From: an uncultured Acidimicrobiia bacterium
GTDB lineage: Bacteria; Actinomycetota; Acidimicrobiia; Acidimicrobiales; JACDCH01
Direction: 5' to 3'
Assembly: GCA_963840695.1 (NCBI GenBank)
Contig: CAWIZW010000009.1
Coordinates: 474,467-538,466, forward strand
Length of the DNA stretch: 64,000 nucleotides
Below are positions 27,692 through 64,000 of this stretch, piece by piece. The number at the start of each line of letters is the position of its first letter. Positions within the stretch are counted from its first letter, which is position 1. Under the pieces are notes generated by a model. The model was not told the DNA's origin and ran no database searches. It saw nothing but the letters and a program-made list of their open reading frames with translations. A program made the position numbers and the translations under genes.

Positions 27692-28440
27692 GTGCATGAC
27701 ATCGCCGGCGCGGCGAACGGCTTCGGGCCGGCGGCCGGCGACTACGAGCGGGCACGACCGTCGTACCCGCCGGGCGCGGTCGACGTCGCTGCGCGTCGAG
27801 CTCGGCGTCGGCCCGGGGCGCGGGTCGTGCGACCTCGCCGCCGGCACCGGGAAGCTCACCCGGCTGCTCGTCGCCGACCGGCGCCGACGTCGTCGCCGTC
27901 GAGCCGGTCGCCGGCATGCGCGAGCGAGCTCGCAGGCGTCGGTGCCCGGCGTCGAGGTCCTCGACGGCACGGCCGAGGCGATCCCGCTCCGCGACGCGTC
28001 CGTCGACGCCGTGACGGTCGCCCAGGCGTTCCACTGGTTCCGCTTCGACGAGGCGCTGGCCGAGATCGCGCGCGTGCTGCGGCCCGGCGGCGGGCTGGCG
28101 ATGCTGTTCAACGAGCGCGACGAGCGGATGCCGTGGGTCAGCGCGGTGGAACGAGGTCATCGAGTGGCACACCCGGCCGCATCGCCTACGTACCAGGACA
28201 CCGACTGGGCCGGCGGTCGCTCGCCGGTCGGCCGGCTTCACCGACGGCGGCGACGCGCAGCGTCGAGTGCGACCCAGCCGATCGACCGCCGAGCTCGTCG
28301 CCGCCCGGGTCCGGTCGACGAGCTACGTCGCCGAGCAGCCGCCCGACGGTGCAGCAGGAGCTACGTCGACCGGGTCGCTCGCTCGTCGTCGACGGGCTTC
28401 GACGAGCACGTTCGACCTCCCCTACGTCACCGCACGCTGT
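27692..28440 (+). CDS. class I SAM-dependent methyltransferase, frameshifted as given
   Basis: Motif I DLAAGTGKLTRLL, ADVVAVEP, VDAVTVAQAFHWF and LRPGGGLAMLFNERD. The pieces are spread over 3 frames. Confidence 0.65.
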
Positions 28441-29334
28441 GGTGGGCATCGAAGCCGCGCGCTGCTCGACGTGGTGGGAGCGGCACGGTCGGCGCGACCT
28501 GCCGTGGCGGCGCACCCGCGACCCGTGGGCGGTGCTCGTGTCAGCGAGCTGATGCTCCAGCAGACCCAGGTGCCGCGGGTCGTGCCGCGCTACGAGGCGT
28601 TCCTCGAGCGGTTCCCGACGCCGGCCGCGTGCGCGGCGGCGCCGGCCGGCGACGTCGTCCGCGCCTGGGCCGGGCTCGGCTACAACCGCCGCGCCGTCAA
28701 CCTGCACCGGTGCGCGCGTGCGCGGTCGTCGAGCGCCACGGCGGGCGTGCTGCCCGACGACGCTCGACGCGCTGCTCGCCCTGCCCGGGCATCGGGCCGT
28801 ACACGGCGCGGGCCGTGCTCGTCTTCGCCTTCGAGCGCGACGTCGGCCTGGTCGACACGAACGCCGGCCGCTTCCTCGCCCGCGCCCGTCGCCGGCCGGG
28901 CCGTTGCGGCCACGCGAGGCGCAGGCGCTGGCCGACGCGCTCGTGCCCGCCCGGCGAGCGTGGGCGTGGGGCTCAGGCGGTGTTCGACCTCGGCGCGCTC
29001 GTCTGCACCAAGCGGGCGCCGCGCGTGCGACGCCTGCCCGCTCGCGCGCCGGCGTGCGCGTGGGCGGCCGCCGGGCTTCCCCGAGCCCGACCCGGTCGAC
29101 GGCTCGGCCGGGATCAGCGGCGCCGCAGTCGCCGGTTCGACGGCTCCGACCGCCAGGGCCGGGGCCGGCTGGTCGACGCGCTCCGGCGCGGCGCCGGTCG
29201 CCGCCGCCGACCTCGCCGCGGTGATGGGCTGGCCCGACGACCACACGCCGCGCCGCGCGCGTGGCCGCCACCGCTCGTCGCCGACGGCCTCGCCACGCAT
29301 CGACGACGAAGGCCGCTTCAGCCTCCCGGCCTGA
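28439..29334 (+). CDS. mutY: A/G-specific adenine DNA glycosylase (MutY-like), heavily frameshifted as given
   Basis: Motifs WWERHGRRDLPWRRTRDPWAVLVSELMLQQTQV, AWAGLGYNRRA and HhH LPGIGPYTARAV. A reconstructed C-x6-C-x2-C-x5-C cluster loop reads CTKRAPRCDACPLARRC. There are at least 5 frame changes. Confidence 0.75.
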
Positions 29335-29344
29335 CGAATGCTGT

Positions 29345-29875
29345 TCAGTCGGGCATGGCGACGAGGGCGTCGACGATGTCGTCGACGGCGGCGTCGGCGA
29401 GCGCCTGCATCTCGTCGTCGGTGCGGTCCTGGATCGGGTGGGCGACGAACACGCGCGCGACGTCGACGCCGAGCGCGCCGGCCTGGGCGTCGGCGGCGTC
29501 GACGAACTCGGTCGACGCGACGAACACCGCGGCACGCCCCGGGCCTCGAGATCGGCGATGTCGTGCACACTGCACGACGTGCACGAGCCTCAGTCGGCGA
29601 GGGCCTCGATCACGCACGTCGCACGCGCTGGCGATCTCGTGGCGCAGGTCGACCGGGGCGGGCTTGGTGAACGTCGGCTTGGCGAAGCGCCGCACCGTCG
29701 GCGCCCCGCGCTCGCAGCAGCTCCTCGAGGCGGTCGAGGAACACGTCGCCGCGCGGCTTGCTGATGTCGAGCAGCCCGATGGATCTTGCCGTCGAGTGCC
29801 GTCGAGCCGGGCGGCGAGCGGTGCGGCCGCGCCGGCGCTCGCTCGGCGGTCGGGATCGAGGAGCGTCACAGCCAT
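29345..29875 (-). CDS. candidate UGSC-family (seleno)protein; in-frame TGA at 29592-29590 read as Sec; frameshifted as given
   Basis: Reconstructed product: MAVTLLDP...SIGLLDISKPRGDVFLDRLEELL...VRRFAKPTFTKPAPVDLRHEIASACDV, then VIEALAD-U-GSCTSCSVHDIADLEARGVP, then VFVASTEF...AHPIQDRTDDEMQALADAAVDDIVDALVAMPD. An AGGAG sits 10 nt upstream of the ATG. About 4 frame changes. Confidence 0.6.
   Translation of the reverse strand: MAVTLLDPDRRASAGAAAPLAARLDGTRRQDPSGCSTSASRAATCSSTASRSCCERGAPTVRRFAKPTFTKPAPVDLRHEIASACDVRDRGPRRLRLVHVVQCARHRRSRGPGRAAVFVASTEFVDAADAQAGALGVDVARVFVAHPIQDRTDDEMQALADAAVDDIVDALVAMPD
29560..29578 (-). promoter_or_regulatory. SECIS-like hairpin downstream of the in-frame TGA
   Basis: On the minus strand, GTCGTGCA-gtg-TGCACGAC (perfect 8-bp stem) starts 11 nt after the TGA at 29592-29590. 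Confidence 0.5.
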
Positions 29876-31293
29876 GCGCTCTGATCTCCTTCGGTGACGG
29901 GCGTGGACTGCCGGTGGCGCCGTTGGCCCAGCCGCCGATGATCGAGCGAGAACAGGCCGGCCCCGCCGCCGGCGTGGACGAGCAGCAGGCCGCCGTCGCG
30001 GAACTTCGGGAGCGTCGCGTCGGCGAAGGCCTCGGGGAAGCCCTCGGCGATGCCGCCGGCGCCCCGCACGATCTCCGCGCCCGGGAGCTGGCAGCAGCTC
30101 GAGCAGCTCGGGCGAGCAGCCGTGCTCGCGTCCCAGCCGGCGTCGCGGAACACCCGCGCCGTGCTCGGGCGACACGACGAGCATGGCGTCGAAGACCATC
30201 GCCAGCTTCGGGTGCTGCACCGTCCGCAGGCAGGCGGCGAGCGTCCGGCGAGCGACTCCGGGTCGCGCGACAGCTGGTCGACGATGCCCCGCGGTCCCTC
30301 GCCGGCGAACAGCGTGACGGCGTCGACGCCGTGCGGCGAAGCCCGCGCGACACCGACAGCGGCTCGCACGGCGAGCCCTCCTCGTCCTCGGCGAAGCAGA
30401 ACGTGAACTTGCCGGGGTTGCCGTGCGTGGCCCGGTCGACCTCGCCGGGGCGGCCGCCGCCGACGTTGCGGATCACGAGCTGCAGCGCCCGCCCGATGGT
30501 GGCGTTGGCCCGGTTGCCCTGGCCGAGGGCGTTGCACGCCCGAGTTCATGCCGATGCGGTGGCGGATCGGCCCGTTCACGATCGAGCACCGGGCCGACCG
30601 GCATCGTGGTCGCCAGCAGGCCGTGGGCGTTGAACTCGTCGGTGCACGCGGCCTCGACCGCGGCGAGCACGACGGGCAGGTACTCGGGCTGGCAGCCGGC
30701 CAGCACCGCGTTGATGGCGACCTTCTCGACCGTGCACTCGACGAGGTCGGGCGGGACGACGGCGACGACCTCGTCGGCGCGCGTGCGTCGTGCCCTCGAG
30801 CATGCGCAGGACCCGGGCTTCGGTCGGGGGCACGACGGGCAGGCCGTCGGTCCAGCCCCGGTCGAACATGGCCTCGACCTCGTCCTCGAGCTCGGCCGAG
30901 GTCGACCCGCCGGCTGCGCAGCGCCGACCGCGCCGTGAGCGCACGGCCAGCTCCGTCGGCGACCGTCGGGTCGAGGGTCGCGGCTGCCGCAGCCCGGGCG
31001 GTGCTCGGGCAGGTCGTGCGCCGAGGCGGCTCGACGCCGGTGAGCGCCTTCCCAGCGCGTGACGCGATCCAGCCCTCGGTGCGCTCGACGATCTGCGCCG
31101 CCGCTCGACGCGCAGCAGCGTCGGCACCGTCTCGACGCCGAGCGGCGTAGGACGATGTCGAGGCCCGTCGTCGTCGTCCTCGCTGACGACGTGGGCGCGC
31201 GAGGCCGGCGAGCACCGGGCGCACGAGCGTGCACGTCGGGCAGTCGGCCTTGACGACGGCCACGAGCCCGTCCGGCAACACCGGTGCCCCCAC
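29866..31293 (-). CDS. thioredoxin-like (CPTC) N-terminal domain fused to a conserved domain of unknown function; heavily frameshifted as given
   Basis: Starts MGAPVLPDGLVAVVKADCPTCTLVRPVLAGLA. Later blocks are FDRGWTDGLPVVPPTEARVLRML, AINAVLAGCQPEYLPVVLAAVEA, LIVNGPIRHRIGMNSG, VIRNVGGGRPGEVDRATHGNPGKFTFCFAEDEE and GGLLLVHAGGGAGLFSL. The stop overlaps the UGSC gene start by 10 nt. Confidence 0.5.
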   Translation of the reverse strand: MGAPVLPDGLVAVVKADCPTCTLVRPVLAGLARPRRQRGRRRRASTSSYAARRRDGADAAARRAAAQIVERTEGWIASRAGKALTGVEPPRRTTCPSTARAAAAATLDPTVADGAGRALTARSALRSRRVDLGRARGRGRGHVRPGLDRRPARRAPDRSPGPAHARGHDARAPTRSSPSSRPTSSSARSRRSPSTRCWPAASPSTCPSCSPRSRPRAPTSSTPTACWRPRCRSARCSIVNGPIRHRIGMNSGVQRPRPGQPGQRHHRAGAAARDPQRRRRPPRRGRPGHARQPRQVHVLLRRGRGGLAVRAAVGVARASPHGVDAVTLFAGEGPRGIVDQLSRDPESLAGRSPPACGRCSTRSWRWSSTPCSSCRPSTARVFRDAGWDASTAARPSCSSCCQLPGAEIVRGAGGIAEGFPEAFADATLPKFRDGGLLLVHAGGGAGLFSLDHRRLGQRRHRQSTPVTEGDQSAWL

Positions 31294-31303
31294 GGCAGGG
31301 AGA

Positions 31304-32195
31304 CTACGGCGAGAAGAACTGCACGATCAGGCCGTTGACGACATCGGGCGCCTCGAGGTGCAGGAAGTGGCCGGTGCCGGGGACGAGCTCGACCCGGTCG
31401 TCGTCGCCGGCCAGGAGGGTCTCGGCCCGCTCGGCGATCTCGACGCCCATGCAGCCGTCGTCGATCGCCGTGCAGGTACAGGTGCGGTTGCGGCGGCAGC
31501 CCGCCGGTCGCCGCCTCCTCGGCGGCGAGCTCGGGCACCTGCAGGGCGGGTTGGAACGTGGCCCGGTAGTAGCCGAGGGCGGCGGCCAGGTTGGCGGGGT
31601 CGCGCAGCGACGTCCTTGACCGCCTCGCGGTCGTCGCCGCTGTCGGTGTACCCGGGCGACCAGTCCTCCCACAGGCGGTCGATGAACTCGAGGTCGTTCA
31701 TGCCGACGGCGATGTCGGCCAGCGGGTTCTGGAAGAAGAACATGTACCAGGAGCGCTTCAGCTGCCGGTAGGTGAGGAAGGCCTGGCCGACCGCCGGCGC
31801 CGGCGGGACGGCCATGGTCACGACCCGCGCGCCAGCGGTCGGGGCGCGAGGACGGCCGCTCCGGTGGCGGCGATGGCGCCCCAGTCGTGGCCGACGAGGA
31901 CGGCGTCGGCGTCGCCGCCGAGCGCGTCGTGCAGGCCGATGGCGTCGGCGACGAGGGCGCCGTTCTGGAGCCGGCCGTCGGCGGGGACGGCCGTCGGCGC
32001 GTAGCCGCGCATCCACGGCGCCACGGCCCGGAACCCCGCCGCTGCGAGCTCGGGCAGGAGGTGGCGCCACGTCCGCGCCGAGTCGGGGAAGCCGTGCAGG
32101 CACAGGGCGAGCGGGCCTTCGTCGCCACACGTGAGGTAGGCGATGTCGAGACCGCCGACCTCGACCGCGGCCTGGCGCAGCTCCGGGGCTCCCAT
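31304..32195 (-). CDS. alpha/beta hydrolase (epoxide hydrolase/dehalogenase-like), frameshifted as given
   Basis: Motifs LCLHGFPDSARTWRHL, nucleophile block VGHDWGA, YMFFFQNP and C-terminal GTGHFLHLEAPD. The pieces lie in at least 4 frame segments. Confidence 0.7.
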
Positions 32196-32253
32196 GGGCG
32201 CACGACCGTAGCCACGTGACTGCGGTCACAGCACGTGACCCCGCCAGTTCACC

Positions 32254-38502: not shown

Positions 38503-38518
38503 GAAATAGCCTGGGGCC

Positions 38519-39926
38519 ATGGCAACTGCCGACCTCGGCCTCGACCTCTCCCGGTACAAGCTCGGCTGGGCTGACGAGGAGGACTACGTCTTCAAGCCCA
38601 AGAAGGGCTTGAACGAGCCGACATCGTCCGGGAGATGTCCTGGATGAAGGGCGAGCCCGACTGGATGCTCGACTTCCGGCTGAAGTCGCTCCGGAACTTC
38701 GAGCGCCGCCCGATGCCCAACTGGGGCGCCGACCTCTCCGGCGTCCACTTCGACGACATCTACTACTACATCAAGCCCACGAACTCGCAGGTCGACGAGT
38801 GGGAGGAGCTGCCCGACGCCATCAAGCGACCTACGAGAAGCTGGGCATCCCCGAGGCCGAGCGCAAGTACCTCGCCGGCGTCACCGCCCAGTACGAGTCC
38901 GAGGTCGTCTTCCACCGCAACCGGGCCGACCTCGAGGCCAAGGGCGTCATCTTCTGCGACATGGACACCGCCCTCCGGGAGCACCCGGAGCTGGTCAAGC
39001 CGTACTTCGGCAAGATCATCCCGCAGAACGACAACAAGTTCGCCGCCCTCAACTCGAGCGGTCTGGTCGGGCGGGTCGTTCATCTACGTGCCGCCGGGCG
39101 TCGAGGTCGACATGCCGCTGCAGGCCTACTTCCGCATCAACGCCGAGAACATGGGCCAGTTCGAGCGGACGCTGATCATCGCCGACGAGGGCTGCCAGGT
39201 GCACTACATCGAGGGCTGCTCGGCGCCGGTGTACACGACCGACTCGCTGCACTCCGCGGTCGTCGAGATCGTCGTGAAGCCGAGCGGCCCGGGTCACCTA
39301 CACGACCATCCAGAACTGGTCGAACAACGTCTTCAACCTGGTCACCAAGCGGGCCCGGGTCGAGGCCGAGGGCCACATGGAGTGGATCGACGGCAACATC
39401 GGCAGCCAGGTCACGATGAAGTACCCGGCCGTCTGGCTCGTCGGGCCCGAAGGCCTCGGGCGAGGTGCTCTCGGTGGCCTACGCCGGCCCGGGCCAGCAC
39501 CAGGACACCGGCGCCAAGATGGTCCACGCCGCGCCCGAGACGACCTCGAAGATCGTGTCCAAGTCGATCTCCAAGGACGGCGGTCGCACCTCCTACCGCG
39601 GCCTCGTCCGGGTCGAGGACGACGCCTACGGCTGCAAGAGCCACGTCCAGTGCGACGCGCTGATCCTCGACGAGGACTCGGTCACCGACACCTACCCCTA
39701 CATGGAGGTCGGGTCGCGCGACGCCGTCATCGGCCACGAGGCGACGGTCTCGAAGGTCGCCGACGAGCAGCTCTTCTACCTGATGAGCCGGGGCCTCTCC
39801 GAGGAGCAGGCCATGGGCATGATCGTGAACGGCTTCATCGAGCCGGTCACCCGCACCCTCCCGATGGAGTACGCCGTCGAGTGGTCCCGCCTGATCGAGC
39901 TCCAGATGGAGGGCTCGGTGGGCTGA
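38519..39926 (+). CDS. sufB: Fe-S cluster assembly protein SufB, frameshifted as given
   Basis: Motifs [83 protein letters not shown] and [11 protein letters not shown]...[20 protein letters not shown]. At least 4 frame changes; one is a missing base at 38618-38619. Confidence 0.9.
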
Positions 39927-39927
39927 C

Positions 39928-40293
39928 ATGCCGATGCGCCAGGACTGCAAGTTCTTCGAGAGCCGGACCTACGCCAACGGCGAGACCGTGCGGAAGTGCG
40001 ACCTCGACCTCGCGCCCGAGGCGCCGTGGCGGTGCCCCGACCCCTGCCCGGCGTTCCGGCCCCGGCTGGCCGACGTGAACTGGAGCCACGCCTCGCTCGT
40101 CACCCCGCCGACGCCGGACGAGCCCGTCGGTGAGGGGATCGCCGAGCTGCTCGACGAGGCCGAGGACATCATCAACGCCGCCGGCCCCAAGATCCTCGCC
40201 GAGGTCGAGGCCGAGCAGCCAAGGCGGCGCGCCGTCGGGCGGCGTCACCGGCCGGTTCGGGCGCTTCTTCCGCCGCAACCGCCGCACCGCTGA
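39928..40293 (+). CDS. small four-Cys protein of unknown function inside the suf operon
   Basis: [43 protein letters not shown]... (C-x16-C-x11-C-x3-C). The ATG is 1 nt after the sufB stop. The C-terminal tail frame is uncertain. Confidence 0.5.
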
Positions 40294-40317
40294 CCTCACG
40301 AGGCTCGCCTTCCCGCC

Positions 40318-41550
40318 ATGCCCGACCTCGCCTCCTTCTCGCCCGCCGACCGCCCGCCGACCGCGACGCCGCCGAGGCGTTCGCCGCGGCCGTCGCTCCC
40401 GACCGCCGAGGAGGAGGTGTGGCGCTACAGCCCCATCGGCGACCTCGACCTCGAGCGGTTCGCGCCGGCGGTCGCGCCCCGGGCCGACGGCGGTGCCGGC
40501 CGGCGCCCAGGCCATCCTCGACCTCGCCGCCGGGATCGGGTCGCTCGGCGCCGTCACCGTCAACGGCCACCTCGTCGTGGAGCGGTGACCTCGGAGGGTG
40601 GCACGACGGGCGCCCTCGGCCTCGACGGGGGCGACGCTCCCGACGCCGCGCCGGCGGACGCCTTCGACCTCCTCGACGACGCCTTCGCCTCGCCCGATCG
40701 TCCTGCGCAGCGCGCCCGGCGCCGCGTCGAGCCGGTCGTGGTCGTCCACTGGATCGACGGCCAGCAGGTCGCCGCGCTTCCCGCGGCTGGTCGTCGAGGC
40801 CGGCGCCGACAGCGACGTCGCGGTCCTCGAGGTGCTCGCTGTCGACCCCCGACGCCGACGCCCTCGTCGTGCCGGACACCGACCTCGTCGTCGGCAAGGC
40901 GGCCCGGGTCGGCCACCTCGCCGTCCAGGACCTCGGCCTCGGCGTCTGGCAGCTCGGTCACCAGCGCTCCACCGTCGACGCCGATGCCACGCTGACCGCG
41001 GCCGCCGCCGCCTTCGGCGGGCGCTACGCCCGCCTGCGCACCGACTGCCGCCTCGCCGGCCGGGGCGCCACCGGCAACCTGCCGTGCCGTCTGGTTCGGC
41101 GAGGCCGACCAGCACCTCGACTTCCGCACCTTCCAGGACCACGCCGCGCCCGACACCACCAGCGACCTCGTCTACAAGGGCGCCGTCGGCGGGCGGAGCC
41201 GCAGCGTCTACACCGGGCTCATCAAGGTCCGGCCCGACGCCCGGGGCACCAACGCCTTCCAGACCAACCGCAACCTCAAGCTGTCCGACGACGCCTGGGC
41301 CGAGTCGGTGCCCAACCTCGAGATCGAGAACAACGACGTCCGCTGCTGCGCACGCCTCGGCCGTCGGGCCCGTCGACGAGGAGCAGCGCTGGTACCTCGA
41401 GAGCCGCGGCGTGCCGCCGACGGTCGCCGAGCGCCTCATCGTCGCCGGCTTCTTCGAGGAGGTCATCAGCCAGGTCCCCGTGCCCGCCGCGGCCGGGCCG
41501 CTCCGGGCGTCGGTCGCGGCAAGCTCGATCGGCGAGCGGGAGGCCAATGA
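40318..41550 (+). CDS. sufD: Fe-S cluster assembly protein SufD, heavily frameshifted as given
   Basis: Motifs [82 protein letters not shown] and [10 protein letters not shown]...[13 protein letters not shown]. At least 5 frame changes. Confidence 0.8.
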
Positions 41551-41882
41551 GCGTCAACCGGGATCCGCAGCTGCTCGACGTCGGCGCCCTCGACGACCTC
41601 GAGCCGGGCGCCGCCACGCGGTTCGACGTCGACGGCCGCCGCATCGCCCTCGTCCGCATCGACGACGACCGTCTACGCCATCGGCGACCGCTGCACCCAC
41701 GCCGACGTGTCGCTCGCCGAGGGCGAGGTCGACGCCGACGGAGCGCACCATCGAGTGCTGGAAGCACGGCAGCCAGTTCTCCCTCGAGACCGGCGAGCCG
41801 CTGTCGCTGCCGGCGACGAAGCCCACCCCCATCTACGACGTCGTCGTGCGCGACGGCCGGATCCTGCTGGACGTTGAGCTAG
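41547..41882 (+). CDS. Rieske (2Fe-2S) ferredoxin-like protein of the actinobacterial suf operon, frameshifted as given
   Basis: [41 protein letters not shown], then [11 protein letters not shown] and [16 protein letters not shown] (C-x-H ... C-x2-H). The ATG overlaps the sufD stop (ATGA). The 3' end is approximate. Confidence 0.75.
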
Positions 41883-42673
41883 TGCCGACCCACGAGCTCG
41901 TCATCGAAGGGCTGCGGGCCGGCGTCGGCGGCCGCGAGATCCTGCGGGGGATCGACCTGGTCGTGCGCAGCGGCGAGGTCCACGCCGTCATGGGCCCGAA
42001 CGGCTCGGGCAAGTCGACCCTCTCGCACGTGCTGGCGGGCAAGCCCGGCTACGAGGTCACTCGGCGGCACGCGTCACCCTCGACGGGGTCGACCTGCTCG
42101 GGCTCGAGCCGTGGCAGCGGGCCCAGGCCGGGCTGTTCCTCGCCTTGCAGTACCCGGTCGAGGTGCCCGGCGTGGCCCTCCGCGACCTGCTCCGCGAGGC
42201 CTTCGTCGCCGCCGGGCGCAGCACCGAGGGGCTCGACGAGCTCGTCACCGTGGAGGCCGAGGCCATCGGCTTCGACGAGCGGTTCCTCGACCGGCCGCTC
42301 AACGTCGACCTCTCCGGCGGCGAGAAGAAGCGCAACGAGACGCTCCAGCTCGGCGTCCTCGACCCGAAGATCGCCGTGCTCGACGAGCTCGACTCCGGTC
42401 TCGACGTCGACGCCCTGCGCGCCGTGAGCCGTCGCATCGAGGCGGTCACGAACACCGAGGGCATCGGCGTCCTCGCCATCACCCACTACAGCCGGCTGCT
42501 CACCGTGCTGCGGGCCGACACGGTGCACGTCCTCTCCGGGGGCCGCATCCAGGCATCCGGTGGACCCGAGCTGGCCGAGGAGCTCGAGCGGACCGGCTAC
42601 GCCGACTACGCGGAGCCGGCCGCCGTGTCCGCCATCGCCGCCGGCCGGCCTCTTCGACGATCCGTTCGCCTGA
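41882..42673 (+). CDS. sufC: Fe-S cluster assembly ATPase SufC (copy 1), frameshifted as given
   Basis: Motifs [56 protein letters not shown] and ITHYSRLL. The likely native C-terminus GLFDDPFA with its stop at 42671-42673 is reached after a late frame change. Confidence 0.85.
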
Positions 42674-42696
42674 CGCCGCACGTATCCTCGTCCTCC

Positions 42697-43490
42697 GTGC
42701 GGCGGCACATCCGAGCGCTCCTGTTGCTGGTCATGGCCTTCGCCGTCGTCGGCGCGGGCGCAGGGATCGCCGTCGCCGCCGCGTCGCACGACGAGCCCGA
42801 GCCGGTCCAGGTCGTCGCCAGCTCGTTCGCGCTCGCCGGCGATGGCGACGCCACGGCGATGCGCCCGATCCACGGCTTCCACGCCGCCGAGGCGCTCGTG
42901 GCCGAGCTCGAGGCGTTCGACTCGCCGGCGCCGGCGCCCGGCACGCCGCCGTCGTCGACGCTGCCCAACCCGACCCGAGACGGCGCCTGCTCGTCGTGCA
43001 GGTCCTCGACGCCGATCCCACGGGTCAGTGGCTGTACGCGCAGCTGCCGCAGCGACCGAACGGCTCGAAGGGGTGGATCCGGGCCGCCGACGTCCGCGTC
43101 TTCGACGTACCGAACCGCATCGAGGTCAACGTCACCACGAACCAGCTGCGCGTGTTCCGAGGCGACTCCGACGAGGTGCTGGTCGAGGCGACGGTGGCGA
43201 CCGGCGCGGCCGAGCACGCCGACGCCGCTCGGCGACTTCTTCATCGACATCTACAACCCGCTCGGCCACCACGCCGTCTACGGCTGGGGCCAGATGAGCA
43301 TCTCGGCGTTCAGCGACGTGCTGTACAGCTTCGGCGGCGGCATCGGTCAGGTCGCCATCCACGGGTGGAACGACGACTCGGTCATGGGTCAGCACGTGTC
43401 CAACGGCTGCATCCGGATGCGCAACGACGACATCGCCCTCGTCGCCGCAGTTGACGGGCCTCGGGCGCGCCGGTGAGGATCGTCGCATGA
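42697..43490 (+). CDS. L,D-transpeptidase (YkuD domain) with N-terminal membrane anchor, frameshifted as given
   Basis: TM segment [24 protein letters not shown], then a catalytic block [21 protein letters not shown]. Frame changes near 42985 and 43225. Ends GAPVRIVA, overlapping the next ATG. Confidence 0.75.
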
Positions 43491-44654: not shown

Positions 44655-45451
44655 TTACAGGTCCGGCAGGCCCAGCGGGAGGTTCGGGGCCTGGAGGCCG
44701 CCGTCGACCTCGATGACCTTGCCGGTCACGAACGACCCCGCCGGGCTCGCCAGCCACAGGCAGGCGGCGGCGATGTCCTCGACCTCGCCGAGGCGCTTCA
44801 CCGGGGTCGCCTCCTCCATCGCCGCGCGCATGTCGTCGTCGCCCGTGACGATCTCGAGTGCCGAGGTCGCCACGGATCCGACGGCGATGGCGTTCACCCG
44901 GATGCGGGGAGCCAGGTCGGCGGCCGCCAGGCGGGTGAGGTGGGCGAGACCGGCCTTGGCCGTGCCGTAGGCGAGCATGCCGCGGTCGGCCATGCGACCC
45001 ATGGCGGAGCTGATGTTCACGACCGCGCCGCTCGCCCCGTTCGAGCATCGCCGGCACCGCCGCCTTCGTGAGGACGAAGGCGGTGGTGACGTTGAAGTGG
45101 AAGGCGCGCTCGAGGTAGCCGGGCGACGTGTCGAGGAACGGCCGGGGCATCGTGCCGCCGGCGTTGTTCACGACGATGTCGACGCCGCCGAGCTCGCGTG
45201 ACGGCCCGCTCGACGAGTCCGATCGTCGCCGCGTCGTCGTTGACGTCGATCGGCGCCACCACGGCCCGCCGGCCGAACGCCTCGACCTCCTCGGCCACCG
45301 CCCGCAGCTGCTCCTCGGTGCGGGACGCGAGCACGACGTCGGCGCCCGCCTCGGCGAGGGCCAGCGCGCACCCGGCGCCGATCCCGCGACCGGCGCCGGT
45401 CACGATCGCCACCTTGCCATCGACGCGGAACCGCTCGAGCACGCCTGTCAT
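44655..45451 (-). CDS. SDR-family oxidoreductase (FabG-like), frameshifted as given
   Basis: Motifs [28 protein letters not shown] and [11 protein letters not shown]. Assembled from track ORFs 45017..45451, 44575..45171 and 44655..45020. Confidence 0.8.
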
Positions 45452-45482
45452 CCCGGCGACGCTAGCCAGACCTGACGGCGCG

Positions 45483-45970
45483 TCAGGTCTCGGTGATCTC
45501 GTCGAGGCCCTGGGTGAGCGTGATCCACGCCAGCGTGGCGCACTTGATCCGCGGCGGGAACTTCACGACGCCCTGGAGGGCGGCGAGGTCGCCGAGCGGC
45601 TTCTCGTCGACGGGCTCCGGCTCTGCGCCGTCGCCCGACTCGGTGCCGTCGCCGCCGATCGTCGTCTCGTGGATCGACATCATCGACTTGAACTCGCGGG
45701 CGATGTCGCGCACCTCGTCGAGGGGCTTGCCCTTGATCGCCACCGACATCATCGACGCCGACGACTGGCTGATCGAGCAGCCCTGGGCGGCGATGCGGAC
45801 GTCGTCGACGACGCCGTCGCGCACGTCGAGGAACAGGCTGATCTCGTCGCCGCACAGCGGGTTGAAGCCGTCGCTGCGGTGGGCGGGGGGACGGGGAGCT
45901 CGCCACGGTTCCGGGGGTTCCGGTAGTGGTCGAGGATGATCTCCCGATAGAGGTCTTCGAGACCGGGCAT
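45483..45970 (-). CDS. sufU: SUF-system NifU/IscU-like scaffold SufU, one frameshift
   Basis: Motifs LYREIILDHYRNPRNRGEL, NPLCGDEISL, AAQGCSISQSSASMM and PRIKCATLAW. Confidence 0.85.
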
Positions 45971-45982
45971 GGCTGGGCGAAC

Positions 45983-47216
45983 CTATCCGAAGAAGGTACT
46001 GGTGGCTTCCAGGGCATCGACGAGGGCGTCGATGTCGTCCTCGTCGTTGTAGACGTACAGGGAGGCGCGGGCGGTGGCGCCCACGCCGAGTCGCCGCATC
46101 AGCGGCTTGGCGCAGTGGTGCCCGGCCCGCACGCACACGCCGCGCTCGTCGAGGATCTGGGAGATGTCGTGGGGGTGGACGTCGCGGAAGCCGAAGGACA
46201 GCACGCCGCCGCGCATCGCCGGCTCCGAAGGACCGTGGATCGTGGATGTCGTCGCCGAAGCGCTCTTTGAGCGTGCGGAGGGCGTAGCCGGTGAGGGAGA
46301 CCTCGTGCTCGCGGATCGGCGTCCATGCCGAGACCGGTGAGCTCGTCGATGGCGGCGTGCAGGCCGATGGCCTCGACGATCGGCGGCGTGCCCGCCTCGA
46401 ACTTCCAGGGGATCTCGTTCGGCGTCCAACCGTCGAGGCGCACGTCGCGGATCATCTCGCCACCACCCATGAAGGCCGGCATGGCCTCGCAGCAGCTCCT
46501 CCTTGGCGACGAGGACGCCGATGCCGGTGGGCCCGAGCATCTTGTGGCCGGTGAACCCGACGAAGTCGGCGTCCCAGGCCTGCACGTCGGTGGGGAGGTG
46601 GGGCACCCACTGGGCGGCGTCGATGAGGACCCTGGCCCCGGCGGCGTGGGCGGCGGCGATGACCAGATCGAGGGGCGGGAGCGTGCCGAGCACGTTCGAC
46701 ATGGCCGTGAGGGCGACGAGCTTCACCCCGTCGACGAGCCGGTCGAGCTCGGACAGGTCGAGCGTGTGGTCGTCGGTGATCGGCAGGTAGCGCAGCTCGA
46801 TGCCGCGCTCCTCGGCCAGCATCAGCCACGGCACGAGGTTGGCGTGGTGCTCCATCTCGGTGAGCAGCACGGCGTCGCCGGCGACCGAGGTTCGCCCTGC
46901 CCCACGTGTAGGCGACGAGGTTGATCGCCTCGGTCACGTTCTTGGTGAAGACGATGCCGCGCTCCGACGGTGCGTTGACGAACCGGGCCACGGCCCGCCG
47001 CGCCCCCTCGTAGGCCTCGGTCGCCTCGGCGGCGATCTCGTAGACGCCCCGGTGGACGTTGGCGTAGGAGGTCTCCTGGAAGCTCGCCATGGCGTCGAGG
47101 ACCGACTGCGGCTTCTGCGAGGAGGACGCCGAGTCGAGGTAGACGAGACGGTGGCCCTTGATCCGGCGCCCGAGGATCGGGAACCGCTCCCGCACCGCCG
47201 GGACGGAGAGGCCCAT
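45983..47216 (-). CDS. sufS: cysteine desulfurase SufS, frameshifted as given
   Basis: Motifs [48 protein letters not shown] and [11 protein letters not shown]. Assembled from at least 4 frame segments. The ATG overlaps the sufC copy 2 stop. Confidence 0.85.
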
Positions 47217-47988
47217 CAGGACTCCTGCCGCGGCCGGAACGCCTCGTAGCCGTCGGTCTCGAGCTGGGCGGCGACCTCCATGCCTCCGGACGCGACGATC
47301 CGGCCGTCGACCAGCACGTGGATCACGTCGGGTCGGAGGTGATCGAGCAGGCGCTGGTAGTGCGTGATGGCGAGGACGCCGAGGTCGGGCCGCTGCTCCC
47401 GAACCTGGTGGACCCCGGCGGCGACGACCTTGAGGGCGTCGATGTCGAGGCCGGAGTCGGTCTCGTCGAGGACGGCCAGCTCCGGCTCGAGGATCGCCAT
47501 CTGGAGGATCTCGTTGCGCTTCTTCTCCCCGCCGGAGAAGCCGTCGTTCAGGTGGCGGTCGAGGAACACCGGGTCCATCCCGAGGCGGTCCATCCACTCC
47601 ATGATCGCCAGCCGCAGCTCGAGGATCGACAGGTCGATGCCCTTGCGGGCCGACAGCGCCTGGCGGAGGAAGTTGAGGACCGACACACCCGCGATCGTCT
47701 GCGGGTACTGGAAGGCGAGGAAGATCCCGGCCTTGCCGCGCACGTCGGTCGCCCAGCCGGTGATGTCGTCGCCCTTGAAGCGGATCCGCCCCGCGGCGAC
47801 CTCGTACTCGGGATTGCCGAGGAGCGTGTTCGCCAGGGTCGACTTGCCCGACCCGTTCGGGCCCATGAGGGCGTGCACCTCGCCGGCGCCCACGACCAGG
47901 TCGACACCGCGCAGGATCTCGGGCGCAGAGGGGTCGCCGGCGACGCGGACGTGCAGGTCCTCGAGCTCGAACAGCGGGGCGCGGTCAC
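47216..47988 (-). CDS. sufC: Fe-S cluster assembly ATPase SufC (copy 2)
   Basis: Essentially intact, with [55 protein letters not shown] and ITHYQRLL. The GTG at 47988 is out of frame by one base over the first 4-5 codons, probably an indel. Confidence 0.85.
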
Positions 47989-48022
47989 GCCGACCAGCGT
48001 AGGGGAGCAGCCCCGGTATTCG

Positions 48023-53348: not shown

Positions 53349-54468
53349 ATGAACTTCGCCTTCTCCGAGGAGCAGGAGGAGCTGCGGCGCATCGTCCGCC
53401 AGTTCCTCGAGTCCAAGTCGTCCGAGGCCGAGGTCCGCCGCCTCATGGAGACCACCGAGGGCTACGACCCCGCGGTCTGGTCGCAGATGGCCAACGAGCT
53501 CGGGCTCCAGAGCCTCGTCATCCCCGAGGAGTTCGGCGGCCAGGGCTTCAGCTACGTCGAGCTCGTCGTCGTGCTGGAGGAGATGGGCCGGCGCCTGCTG
53601 TGCGCCCCCTACTTCTCGACCGTCGCCCTCGCCACGAACCTGCTGCTCCACGCCGGCGACGACGCCGCCAAGAAGGAGCTCCTGCCGGGCATCGCCGCCG
53701 GCGACACCATCGCCACGGTCGCCTTCACCGAGGAGTCGGGTCGCTGGGACGAGGCCGGCATCACCATGGAGGCCACCGGCCTCGCTGGCTGACGGCTTCA
53801 AGCTCAACGGCACGAAGATGTTCGTGCTCGACGGTCACACCGCCAACGTGATCCTCGTCGCCGCCCGGACCGGCGCCGGCGTGTCGATCTTCCAGGTCGC
53901 CGGCGACGCCGCCGGGCTGACCCGCACGCCGCTGGCCACCATGGACCAGACCCGCAAGCAGGCCAAGCTCGAGTTCAACGACGTCGACGCCAAGCTGATC
54001 GGCACCGAAGGCGCCGGGTGGGCGGCCATCGAGCGGATGCTCGACCTCGCCGCCGTCGCCCTCGCCGCCGAGCAGGTCGGTGGCGGCCAGTTCGTGCTCG
54101 AGATGGCCGTGCAGTACGCCAAGGACCGCGTGCAGTTCGGCCGCCCGATCGGCTCGTTCCAGGCCATCAAGCACAAGTGCGCCGACATGCTGCTCGAGGT
54201 CGAGTCGGCCAAGTCCGCCGCCTACTACGCCGGCTGGTGCGCCGCCGAGCTCAACGACGAGCTGCCGTCGGTCGCGTCGCTGGCCAAGGCGTACTGCTCC
54301 GAGGCGTACTTCCACGCCGCCGCCGAGAACATCCAGATCCACGGCGGCATCGGCTTCACCTGGGAGCACCCCGCGCACCTGTACTTCAAGCGGGCCAAGT
54401 CCTCCGAGCTGCTGTTCGGCGACCCGACCTACCACCGCGAGCTCCTCGCCCAGCGCATCGGAATCTGA
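53349..54468 (+). CDS. acyl-CoA dehydrogenase, one frameshift
   Basis: Motifs MNFAFSEEQEELRRIVRQFLE, LVIPEEFGGQG, DRVQFGRPIGSFQAIKHKCADM and QIHGGIGFTWEHPAHLYFKRA. Frame change near 53790. Confidence 0.85.
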
Positions 54469-54471
54469 GGT

Positions 54472-54528
54472 GTCGGCGCCGAACCAGAGGTTCGGCGCCG
54501 AACCTGTCGGCGGCGGCCTCCGGCCGCC
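54472..54528. repeat. REP-like two-hairpin element (same family as 16234-16413)
   Basis: CGGCGCCGAACC-aga-GGTTCGGCGCCG (12-bp stem) is followed by GGCGGCGGCCTCCGGCCGCC, immediately after the ACAD stop. Confidence 0.8.
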
Positions 54529-59807: not shown

Positions 59808-60060
59808 CCTCCTGCCTACCGAAGAAAGGAGGTGGTCCAGCTGAACGGTGAAATGTTCTGGGACTTCGGAGGTGGCCGGCCGCTAGGTCGGACGAGGCTG
59901 GGCCGCCTGGTGAATCCCAGCCGGTCACCGCCCGACCGGGGTGCACGCACCTCGTCCCGGCGTGCACAACGGCTCCGTCGGGTCCTACCAGTTCGAACGT
60001 CGTCTGAGGGGAGGCACGTGATGGCCTCCCCTGCAGTCGCGTTCTCGTACGGTTCTGGGC

Positions 60061-61063: not shown

Positions 61064-61253
61064 CGTGCCTACGCGGCGCGTCGGTGCGGATCGTCTGCAC
61101 GTCGTCGAACGGCACCATCACGTCGTCCTCGCCGTCGTCGACCAGCCAGATGCTCCTGGACGTGCAGGACAGCAGCCTGCCGTGGAGCGCACCCTCGCCG
61201 GTCTCGACGGTGACCGACGACCCAACCATGTGGCGCACTTCCTGGTTGCTCAT
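60993..61253 (-). CDS. small hypothetical protein
   Basis: MSNQEVRHMVGSSVTVETGEGALHGRLLSCTSRSIWLVDDGEDDVMVPFDDVQTI.... The 3' end overlaps the convergent hydrolase gene and is probably over-extended. Confidence 0.35.
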   Translation of the reverse strand: MSNQEVRHMVGSSVTVETGEGALHGRLLSCTSRSIWLVDDGEDDVMVPFDDVQTIRTDAPRRHATRTGRCAGGRASPRRTATARGS

Positions 61254-61453
61254 GCTCCAGCGGTTTACCGCCCACCCACCACCGTTTCGTGGATGGTCGA
61301 CGGAAGTTCACACTTCTCCGCGGCGGACCGGTAGGCGAAGGCGAAGCCGTACCGCTCGGCGGTGGTTCGTCGCGCCCTTGACGATCGATCGGTACGTAGG
61401 GGCGCACCTACGGATCGTGTGTACGAACCGATGCTGGTGTGGACACCCGTAGG

Positions 61454-61831
61454 TCAGGACTTCACGGGCGAGTCGTGGTCCTTCACCATGCGCCGGTATT
61501 CGAGGCGAGAACGGAAGTCGCGCCACCGGGCCCTGACGCCGACAACGATGAGCCAGATGCCGACGACGGCGACGAGGCCGGCGACGGCGAGCTTGATGAT
61601 CCGGATGCCCTTGACGCTGTCCTCGGCGACCGCGCACTCGCTCTCCGATCGATCGTCACCGGCAAAGCGTCCGACAGCTGCGCCGTCGAGGCACTCGACC
61701 TTCACGATCTGGCCGGCTTCGTCGCCTGAGCCGGCGATCTCCGCCGTGTAGGTGCCGACCGGCTCTTGGAACACCAGCAGCCCGGCAATGCCGGCGGCCA
61801 GCAGCACTAACCCGACCACGATCCGTCCCAT
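61454..61831 (-). CDS. hypothetical two-TM membrane protein
   Basis: From the ATG at 61831 inside track ORF 61454..61939: MGRIVVGLVLLAAGIAGLLVF...IIKLAVAGLVAVVGIWLIVVGV. Confidence 0.5.
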   Translation of the reverse strand: MGRIVVGLVLLAAGIAGLLVFQEPVGTYTAEIAGSGDEAGQIVKVECLDGAAVGRFAGDDRSESECAVAEDSVKGIRIIKLAVAGLVAVVGIWLIVVGVRARWRDFRSRLEYRRMVKDHDSPVKS

Positions 61832-61935
61832 CAGGCCCAGATGAGACCGTGTCGGCTGGCTCGGCGCAAGCCCACCCAGCGGTGTTGCACTTGAACGGCG
61901 TTGCGGCACCCGCCGAACTGATGCGCCTCTTGGGG

Positions 61936-63027
61936 TCAAGCGGCGATCTCGGAGGTGGCGTCGGTTGGGTGGGCGGCGGTGATGGCTTGGATGTCGTGGT
62001 AGATCTCGCGGGCGATGTAGCGCTTGAGGCAGCGGATGGCGTCGCGTTTGCTGTGGCCGTCGGCGACGCGGCGTTCGAGGTAGGCGATGGTGGGCGCGTG
62101 GCGGCTGCGGATGCGGACCATGACGATGGTCCAGAGCGCGGAGTTGGCCTGTCGGTCACCGGCGCGGTTGAGGCGTCGCCGGTTCGAGTTGCCGGTTGAG
62201 ATCGGCACCGGCGCGGTGCCGCAGAGCGACGCGAAGCTCGCTTCGGTGGCGAGCCGTTCGGGGTTGTCGCCGGCGGTGCACAGCAGCGCGCCGGCGGTCT
62301 CGTAGCCGAGGCCGTGGCGGGCGAGCAGCGGCGCGGCGATGGTGTCGAGGATGGTCTTGATGGCCTGGTCGAGCTCGGCGATCTCGGCGTCGAGCGCGAG
62401 CCAGCGGCGGGCGATGGCAGGCCAGGGCCCGCTTGGCGGCGCCGGTCGGGGTGAGCAGATCGCCGGGCCGGTAGCGGGCTGCGACGCGTCGACCTGGCGG
62501 CGGGTGGTGAGCCCGCGGAGCTGTTGCGCGGATCGGCGTCGGGGGCGGTGTCACAGACGCTGTGGAGCTGGTTGGCCGCCGCGGTGCGGGCCTTCATCGC
62601 GCCTGCTCGGGCGACGCGGAGCTGGCGGAGCGCTTCGACGGGTCCGTCCCGGCCTTGGGGCTGGCGGTGGCGTCGCCGGCGAGCACGGCCCGGGCGGCCA
62701 TCTCGGCGTCGATGCGGTCGGACTTGCCCTTGCGTCGCCGCTTGTGCCGGTCGGGCTGGTTGACCTCGATCACGTTCAGACCCCGGGCCCGGAGATGCCG
62801 GCACAGCCCAGCACCCCAGGACCCGGTGCCTTCGACCCCGATGGCGAGGACCTCACCGAAGCCGGTCACCCAGCCGGTGAGATCCCGGTAGCCGCGCGGG
62901 GTGGCCGCGAACGCTGGCGGTGTCGAGCTTGCGGCCGAGCTCGTCGAGCACGACCGCGACATGGAACTCCTTGTGGGTGTCGACCCCGGCGATGACACGC
63001 CGGTCGTCGCTCTGCGATGGTGGTCAC
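61936..63027 (-). mobile_element. IS110-family transposase (DEDD recombinase), frameshifted as given
   Basis: N-terminal VIAGVDTHKEFHVAVVLDELG and IGVEGTGSWGAGLCRHLRARGLNVIEVNQ. The C-terminal block reads SGNSNRRRLNRAGDRQANSALWTIVMVRIR...YLERRVADGHSKRDAIRCLKRYIAREIY. At least 4 frame changes. The GTG start is at 63027. Confidence 0.85.
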
Positions 63028-63352
63028 TGCCGCCCTCTTTCGTATGGGTTGGGGGTGGCACGCACGGCCGGGAGGGTGGACAGGACAGGGAGCAGGCCTG
63101 GTAGCTCAGGCGCCTCTTAGGTCACGTTCACCCGACCGGTTGTGCCAACGACAGGACCCGGCTCGCTCGGCCGACAGGTCAGTTCAAGGACACCCGAAGG
63201 GTCGAGCCGATCAGTGGGTCAGACCGAGCGAGCGAGGTCCTGCCGCTTGCTAGCAGCCGCACCACACGACCGCTCCGACATCATCCCTGCCGATCGGGCG
63301 GCGGACAACGCGGCGCGTGGTGGATGGATCAGTAGGGGCCTGGAGTGCTGGG

Positions 63353-63745
63353 ATGGAGGGTGTGACTTGCTCCGTCATCCCTGTTCTGATCTACGAAGAC
63401 ATCGAGCGTGCACACGACTACCTCGTGCGGGTCTTCGGCTTCACCTCAGACGGCATCGATCGAGCACCCGACGGCTCCGTGATCCACGGCGAAGTACGTC
63501 TCGGTCAGGCACGCATCTGGTTGCACCGAGTCACCGACGACCTGGCCTCGCCCGCGATGCTCACCCGCCTGAACGGCGGGCTCGTCGTACATGTCGAGGA
63601 CGTCGACGTGTATTTCGCTCGTGCTCGCGACGCTGGCGCGTTCATCGATCGTGAGCCCGATGATCAGCCGTACGGGCAGCGAGAGTACGGAGCACGCGAC
63701 CTTGAAGGCCATCACTGGTGGTTCGCCACGCCAACGGCGTGCCGC
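63353..63745 (+). CDS. VOC-family (glyoxalase/bleomycin-resistance fold) protein
   Basis: MEGVTCSVIPVLIYEDIERAHDYLVRVFGF...HGEVRLGQARIWLH...PYGQREYGARDLEGHHWWFATP. Track ORF 63317..63994 runs on into non-coding-looking sequence, so the 3' end is approximate. Confidence 0.65.
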
Positions 63746-64000
63746 GCTGTCGGACCGGTAGCAGCGCCACCTTTAGGGCGGACACAGGACGCACCTATCT
63801 GCCGATCGATCGCCGCCGTGGCCGGCTCCGCAGCGGGCACTATGGCGCGGGTGGGCATGCGGTTCTGCCCCCCTCATCTTTCACAACCCGCCAGGGCGCA
63901 CCGACATCTGCCTGCCGAACTAGTTGCGCAAGGACCTGTACGGCACCGGACTCGACCACATGAGCATCCGGCGAAACGAAAGGAAGCATGGTGACGGCAC

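Follow-up and report, generated by a model that had tools for sequence, protein, structure and literature searches.

A probable UGSC-family selenoprotein gene concealed by an in-frame UGA and by assembly indels in an uncultured Acidimicrobiia bacterium

The question raised by the minus-strand locus at 29345..29875 of the stretch of DNA analysed here (64,000 nt, positions 1-64000; hereafter the window) is whether a TGA triplet lying inside a conserved coding frame is a stop codon, a selenocysteine (Sec) codon or the product of faulty sequence. Frame 2 of the minus strand reads VIEALAD-TGA-GSCTSCSVHDIADLEARGVP, with the TGA at 29590..29592; re-reading of the sequence bears out the frame VIEALAD-TGA-GSCTSC put forward in a preliminary description of this DNA, as well as the remark that the ORF 28186..29568 (minus) starts, at a GTG, just past the TGA. 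The gene extends from an ATG at 29875-29873, preceded by an AGGAG ribosome-binding site read from the sequence (29886..29890, minus strand, 10 nt 5′ of the ATG), to a stop TGA at 29347-29345, and the internal TGA, found at the same column in relatives, is predicted to specify Sec as residue 1 of the motif U-G-S-C-T-S-C. The interpretation defended in the following, and held with high confidence, is that the locus represents an ortholog within the known UGSC family, that TGA encodes Sec and is followed by a conserved SECIS element, and that the breaks in the frame are assembly errors.

As assembled, the UGSC gene is not translatable. A frameshift-aware dynamic programme, on which six homologs agree, finds one base too many near each of 29854, 29781, 29697 and 29614 and one too few near 29530, i.e. 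five single-base assembly errors that span 29529..29854 (minus) and fall at the same positions across the six homolog alignments; two further corrections are possible in the variable, poorly conserved N-terminus. At least five corrections are, therefore, needed where about four had been counted, and the product obtained by removing the four extra bases and restoring the missing one has 175 rather than the 176 residues first proposed, a length within the single-domain range of ~170-190 aa of the UGSC family. With U written as C, this frame-corrected product scores 161.7 bits (cut-off 125) against NF041046, the NCBIfam equivalog model whose name, ‘UGSC family (seleno)protein’, had been given correctly in the preliminary description, and 154.7 bits (cut-off 25) against PF24696 of Pfam. 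The (U/C)-G-S-C motif of the family is found at its conserved column, where the window has ALAD-TGA-GSCTSC, and alignment A1 shows no variation at G95, S96, C97, T98, S99 and C100. UGA thus stands at the Sec/Cys column of the homologs, with a conserved open frame beyond it (GSCTSCSVHD...HPIQDRTD). The selenoprotein reading initially advanced finds its support in the family HMM scores, in the alignment of the TGA with Sec or Cys in homologs and in the conservation of the downstream hairpin.

The family itself has been known since 2005-2008. Selenoproteome studies of the Sargasso Sea and GOS have described it, with 255 Sec as opposed to 21 Cys forms in GOS (~12 to 1), where it ranks among the leading families, most notably in non-marine waters (PMC2398784); it belongs to the most abundant aquatic selenoproteins (PMC2398784; PMC13188914), and a 2026 review lists it under NF041046, with its function uncharacterised (PMC13188914). 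The window copy shares with the family its length, the U-G-S-C motif and the column at which it stands, HMM scores above the curated cut-offs, the dominance of Sec over Cys forms and the provenance from actinobacteria of an uncultured lineage living mostly in water or soil. Nothing substantive sets it apart: it is at most 76% identical to the relatives retrieved and is garbled by assembly indels. It is one more ortholog of an already curated family, in poor-quality sequence.

What relatives carry at the TGA column was addressed at both the protein and the DNA level. A protein search returned 1,820 UGSC homologs, most of which are fragments of ~96 aa with a C-terminus that is exactly ...IEALAD; hundreds of such proteins are present in the database and, given where they end, their genes were predicted to terminate at this TGA. 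W or G occupies the column in a few homologs, which fits a TGA translated under another genetic code. At the DNA level, 568 relatives were found among GTDB species genomes by pattern retrieval and tblastn; the retrieval pattern, SCTSC[STC][VLT]HD, is independent of the Sec codon, and the tblastn query carried Cys, so that any bias would be toward Cys forms. In the best 80 of the 568, nearly all of them from Acidimicrobiia MAGs and 64-76% identical to the window copy, TGA followed by in-frame GSCTSCSVHD is present at 80 loci out of 80. The preliminary description had let its reading depend on Sec or Cys occupying this column in homologs; TGA does so in those best 80 loci, and Cys in a few full-length forms.

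The Cys forms differ in what they have kept of the downstream element. In one (L082) the stem is lost (TCC TGC GCA ATT CAT), and in a second (L084) the hairpin is partly kept, with 7 of 8 pairs present despite different residues. A third Cys-form UGSC gene, on contig L083 (947-1486), has TGT at the column, and its SECIS sequence matches the Sec consensus exactly, which suggests that Sec gave way to Cys very recently or that the contig carries a wrong base. The same suspicion may be directed at the window, where TGA could be a sequencing error for TGC or TGT in an organism possessing the Cys form, as the assembly is error-prone and Cys forms do exist, including the one with the intact SECIS sequence. 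This explanation is, nevertheless, very improbable in view of the TGA in all of the best 80 relatives, of the nature of the documentable errors of the window, which are indels and not substitutions, and of the ~12 to 1 prevalence of Sec forms in GOS (PMC2398784).

The hairpin GTCGTGCA-gtg-TGCACGAC (as RNA, GUCGUGCA-GUG-UGCACGAC), with a perfect 8-bp stem, occupies 29560..29578 of the minus strand and is separated from the TGA by a spacer of 11 nt (29589-29579), in agreement with the original report, the sequence having been read anew; its loop, G-U-G, falls at positions 23-25 from the U of UGA. As in the SECIS of the E. coli fdhF type, the element lies inside the coding sequence and its stem starts 11 nt past the UGA, and the G and U at loop positions 23-24 coincide with what we take to be the SelB contact positions of E. 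coli fdhF. It differs from that type in its perfect 8-bp helix, its 3-nt loop, the lack of a bulged U and an unrelated sequence, and Rfam gave no SECIS family match for it at the gathering or at a permissive threshold.

Conservation among relatives is the main ground for assigning it a function. Among 81 sequences, positions +13 to +34 downstream of the UGA (ACGUCGUGCAGUGUGCACGACA) hardly vary, even at third codon positions: ACG, AGT, GTG and GAC are each found in 81 out of 81, AGT being a codon that GC-rich genomes normally seldom use for Ser. The codons for Gly, Ser, Cys, Ile, Ala and Asp on the flanks show free variation. All 71 distinct sequences (100%) preserve pairing throughout the 8-bp helix, and pair 18:30 is GC in 64, GU in 4 and AU in 3, i.e. 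both sides change and pairing is kept. Codon entropy is 0.108 bits over the seven hairpin codons, as compared with 1.099 over 58 other columns with invariant residues (Mann-Whitney p = 1.5e-5), and the window's own hairpin is identical to the consensus throughout the element. The early proposal that the hairpin is a SECIS element is borne out by this complete pairing and strongly suppressed synonymous variation; judged from the comparison of sequences, it is an element under selection at the RNA level, with SelB as its predicted ligand.

Folding energies are in part consistent with this assignment. The isolated hairpin has a predicted stability of -12.4 kcal/mol (z = -3.2), and the 66-nt region around it folds no better than shuffled sequences (z = -0.37). 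A minimum-energy fold of 40 nt in an alternative register, which arises because TCGTGCA is duplicated in the window copy, was rejected, that register not being conserved and the first Ser being AGC or AGT in most relatives.

A TGA followed by a hairpin is not, in itself, exceptional here. The window contains 56 perfect 8-bp hairpins, and 3 of its 915 TGA triplets have one starting 9-13 nt downstream; besides the TGA of UGSC, these are a genuine stop codon with a terminator behind it and a triplet that is out of frame. The association is, therefore, not unusual within the window alone, and its significance rests on the comparison with relatives. The genuine stop, which closes an acyl-CoA dehydrogenase-like gene (54466-54510, plus strand) and is followed by a 12-bp hairpin (TCGGCGCCGAAC...GTTCGGCGCCGA) that looks like an ordinary terminator, provides a chance control. 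It could, accordingly, be argued that the TGA at 29590..29592 is also an ordinary stop and that the stem is a by-product of the codons for S-C-S-V-H-D, the more so as the amino-acid sequence partly constrains the stem, the Cys form in L084 keeps 7 of the 8 pairs with different residues, and a TGA near a hairpin is not rare in a window so rich in GC. The family HMMs, however, cover the sequence before and after the TGA, and the proteins of the Cys form are contiguous; furthermore, synonymous sites in the hairpin are roughly tenfold less variable than those of other invariant residues, with AGT fixed, and the covariation at pair 18:30 preserves the helix, so that an ordinary stop is exceedingly improbable.

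Translation of the TGA as Sec requires a dedicated machinery, of which the window gives no sign: ARAGORN found a single tRNA (Leu) and no tRNA-Sec in the 64 kb, signature motifs of SelA, SelB and SelD were absent from the same stretch, and a scan of it for other Sec-like in-frame TGAs was negative. The absence of sel genes from 64 kb says little about a genome of several Mb. In an Acidimicrobiaceae MAG (contig L009, 14031-18823), tRNA-Sec (ARAGORN), selD in its Cys form (321 bits, cut-off 125), selB (256 bits, cut-off 242) and selA (398 bits, cut-off 268) occur in a row, 3.5-8 kb downstream of the UGSC gene of that contig, and in a further relative (L030) tRNA-Sec is close to the UGSC locus. 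These two loci indicate that the clade decodes Sec, from which we infer that the organism of the window does so too. By analogy with what is established for Sec decoding in bacteria, SelB, loaded with GTP and Sec-tRNA(Sec), would bind the apical part of the hairpin while the ribosome is positioned on the UGA, and Sec would be inserted there in place of termination.

How much trust the corrected frame deserves depends on the origin of the frame breaks, and these are by no means peculiar to the UGSC gene. Single-base indels, insertions more often than deletions, occur throughout the window, with indel-dense patches also elsewhere (e.g. 40.2-41.7 kb and 59-61 kb), and a GC3-based frame-tracking HMM divides the 64 kb into 210 segments where ~60 genes are expected. 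By alignment, frame breaks number 7 in 1613 nt of the acyl-CoA dehydrogenase-like gene, 5 in 1411 nt of sufB (87% identity to a relative), 1 in 889 nt of an MBL-fold gene and 16 in 1408 nt of the gene upstream of UGSC, here called X; an HpcH-like aldolase/lyase gene needs several single-base corrections too. The need for frame correction, which the preliminary description had entered as a caveat, is in this way explained by indel noise that extends over the whole window and affects every gene checked. Across ~2,100 reconstructed codons there is neither an in-frame stop nor a larger deletion. Damage that consists of indels, with neither nonsense mutations nor larger deletions, and that affects essential and other genes alike points to sequencing or assembly error rather than to gene decay, as far as this can be read from the sequence.

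Decay has, nonetheless, to be considered for UGSC and X in particular, which could be real pseudogenes in an organism that has lost the selenoprotein module. With at least 5 indels in the 531 nt of UGSC and ~16 in the 1.4 kb of X, indel density in the pair is ~1.1%, roughly threefold the ~0.3% of the four other genes, and for this reason a small probability is kept for it. Unlike what decay would be expected to leave, however, the reconstructed codons are free of stops and of larger deletions, the SECIS is identical to the consensus, and single-base indels of the same kind are found in every gene examined, including the Fe-S assembly gene sufB, in a window broken into 210 frame segments; pseudogenes are thus an unlikely explanation, and assembly errors the preferred one.

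The errors have a direct consequence for annotation. One of +1 before VIEALAD and one of -1 after ARGVP bracket the TGA, and, by compensating each other, they create a false ORF of 291 aa (29345..30220, minus strand) that joins out-of-frame X sequence to UGSC sequence and passes through the Sec segment out of frame as ...RDRGPRRLRLVHVVQCARHRRSRGPG..., so that gene callers miss the TGA. Read-through of the Sec segment in the wrong frame is also seen in a database protein (P0007) encoded on contig L081, which comes from a long-read-style assembly with ‘contig_N’ names, and the likeness is put down to ascertainment, in that full-length calls come from copies with compensating indels. For the window, the value of the result is one of annotation: a selenoprotein gene has been hidden twice, by the UGA and by the indel-made false ORF, and ORF-based annotation of the window is bound to be fragmented or chimeric. 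The case also shows that a selenoprotein call can be verified from comparative data alone.

The kind of selenoprotein being already known, the question that follows concerns the family, and specifically the role of the pair formed by X and UGSC, rather than the window locus. X encodes ~475 aa at 29866..31293 (minus), as located by frameshift-aware alignment with 68% identity to an ortholog on contig L077, and is broken in the window by the ~16 single-base indels mentioned above. X ends with a TGA at 29868-29866, in overlap with the beginning of the UGSC gene, which makes translational coupling of the two probable, and X is found immediately upstream of UGSC at every one of the best 80 loci among the 568 relatives. 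The X family has at least 8,000 database homologs of ~478 aa; Pfam assigns no domain to it and NCBIfam a weak thioredoxin match only, and the sources that name it do so as ‘thioredoxin family protein’. The N-terminus is a thioredoxin-fold domain with a CPTC (CxxC) motif, behind which lies a large conserved core with the motifs PGCGS, GWTDGLPVVPPT, NRANxxIGRAxQLVxRNVGGGRPG and HAGGGAGLFS; the Cys residues in PGCGS, CTDEFN and FCFAEDE are invariant. In a mediocre AF2 model of X (pLDDT 68), the first ~100 residues, including the CxxC, match thioredoxins, and a fold search with the core of that model returned no match. Upstream of X, an alpha/beta-hydrolase gene (31304-32215, minus strand; stop TAG 31306-31304) is codirectional and ends 11 nt before the start of X; a hydrolase ortholog precedes X in L011 as well, so that the unit may consist of three genes.

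The association of UGSC with X extends to gene fusion. Among 1.8 billion cluster representatives, 2,545 UGSC clusters were found, some of which are fused to the X core, with the UGSC domain replacing the thioredoxin domain of X; two such fusions, P0316 and P0385, are 35% (E = 6e-61) and 27% (E = 1e-34) identical to X, respectively. Pfam named no second domain in ten long UGSC-containing proteins. One further protein, P0243, was considered as an X-UGSC fusion and rejected, its Arg-rich out-of-frame stretches looking like read-through in a noisy assembly. The fusions constitute a Rosetta-stone link between UGSC and the X core; in agreement with this, a UGSC/Unknown_1 fusion is reported for GOS reads (PMC2398784), in which Unknown_1 may be the X core. 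Strict pairing and occasional fusion with a Pfam-less family of at least 8,000 members make the two proteins a target for biochemistry.

The literature describes the fold of UGSC as ‘likely Trx-like’, and the AF2 model of a Cys homolog (P0003; pLDDT 88) appears to differ from this description. It has a five-stranded parallel alpha/beta architecture of order beta-alpha x5, with U/C-G-S-C at a strand end and helix start; its closest counterparts in the PDB are flavodoxin- or Rossmann-like domains of a generic kind (TM ≤0.5), and no thioredoxin is found among the PDB matches of this prediction. A sequence-profile search of solved structures gave noise only. The Trx-like, Prx-like and DsbA-like UxxC selenoproteins share with UGSC the UxxC redox motif at a helix N-terminus and differ from it in that the fold predicted for UGSC itself is not the thioredoxin fold; a CxxC thioredoxin-fold domain is present here in the partner, X.

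A different relationship is hinted at by selenoprotein B of the glycine, sarcosine, betaine and D-proline reductases (GrdB, GrdF and PrdB; PF07355, TIGR01917, TIGR01918), the UxxCxxC motif of which (PMC13188914, for GrdB) corresponds to U-GS-C-TS-C of the window, and several UGSC members give weak, recurrent profile matches to the Sec-bearing region of GrdB/GrdF (best E = 4.4e-4). UGSC scores, however, 14.8-15.7 bits against TIGR01917 (cut-off 602) and 12.8-14 against NF040794 (cut-off 800), and nothing was reported for PF07355 with the UGSC product at E ≤1. GrdB-type proteins are, moreover, ~430 aa long as compared with ~175 aa, and neither a pyruvoyl proprotein nor GrdA/GrdC partners are found near UGSC, the partner of which is X. 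The resemblance, at the level of sequence profiles, should be taken as a lead and not as membership.

If the model of the Cys homolog holds for the window copy, the 175-aa product would be a five-stranded alpha/beta domain displaying U-G-S-C-T-S-C at a strand end and helix start, the usual place for a redox-active selenol/thiol pair. With X always adjacent and its core sometimes fused to UGSC, the most likely role would be that of a selenol/thiol-disulfide relay serving the X core enzyme and linking UGSC, the thioredoxin domain of X and that core. A broader proposal, which is tentative and indeed rather doubtful, is that UGSC and X together make up a selenium-dependent oxidoreductase of two components, uncharacterised so far and widespread among aerobic Actinomycetota of water and soil. 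UGSC would then be a free-standing flavodoxin-like relative, without a thioredoxin fold, of the UxxCxxC domain found in protein B of glycine/proline reductase, and the X core a new catalytic domain taking electrons via its own thioredoxin domain and the selenol.

Other features of the window may be mentioned briefly. A suf cluster was recognized by eye at 38513-42900 (plus strand), with sufB, sufD, a Rieske-type protein and sufC, of which sufB was confirmed by alignment; a further sufC-like gene, with sufS and a sufU/nifU-like gene after it, also by eye, lies at 45200-47990 (minus strand) and converges on the plus-strand set. From ~61 kb onward the GC content drops to ~65-68% in several 500-bp bins, the last 1 kb (63000-64000) has no coding signal, and the translation of 61080-62400 (minus strand) resembles an IS110-family transposase (VIAGVDTHKEFH...GEVLAIGVEGTGSWG...); the region at ~61-64 kb may be a mobile element or the edge of an island. 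Finally, Rfam detects the actinobacterial sRNA Ms_IGR-5 at 59818-59989 (plus strand; 56.4 bits, gathering score 45), in a stretch called non-coding by the frame HMM.
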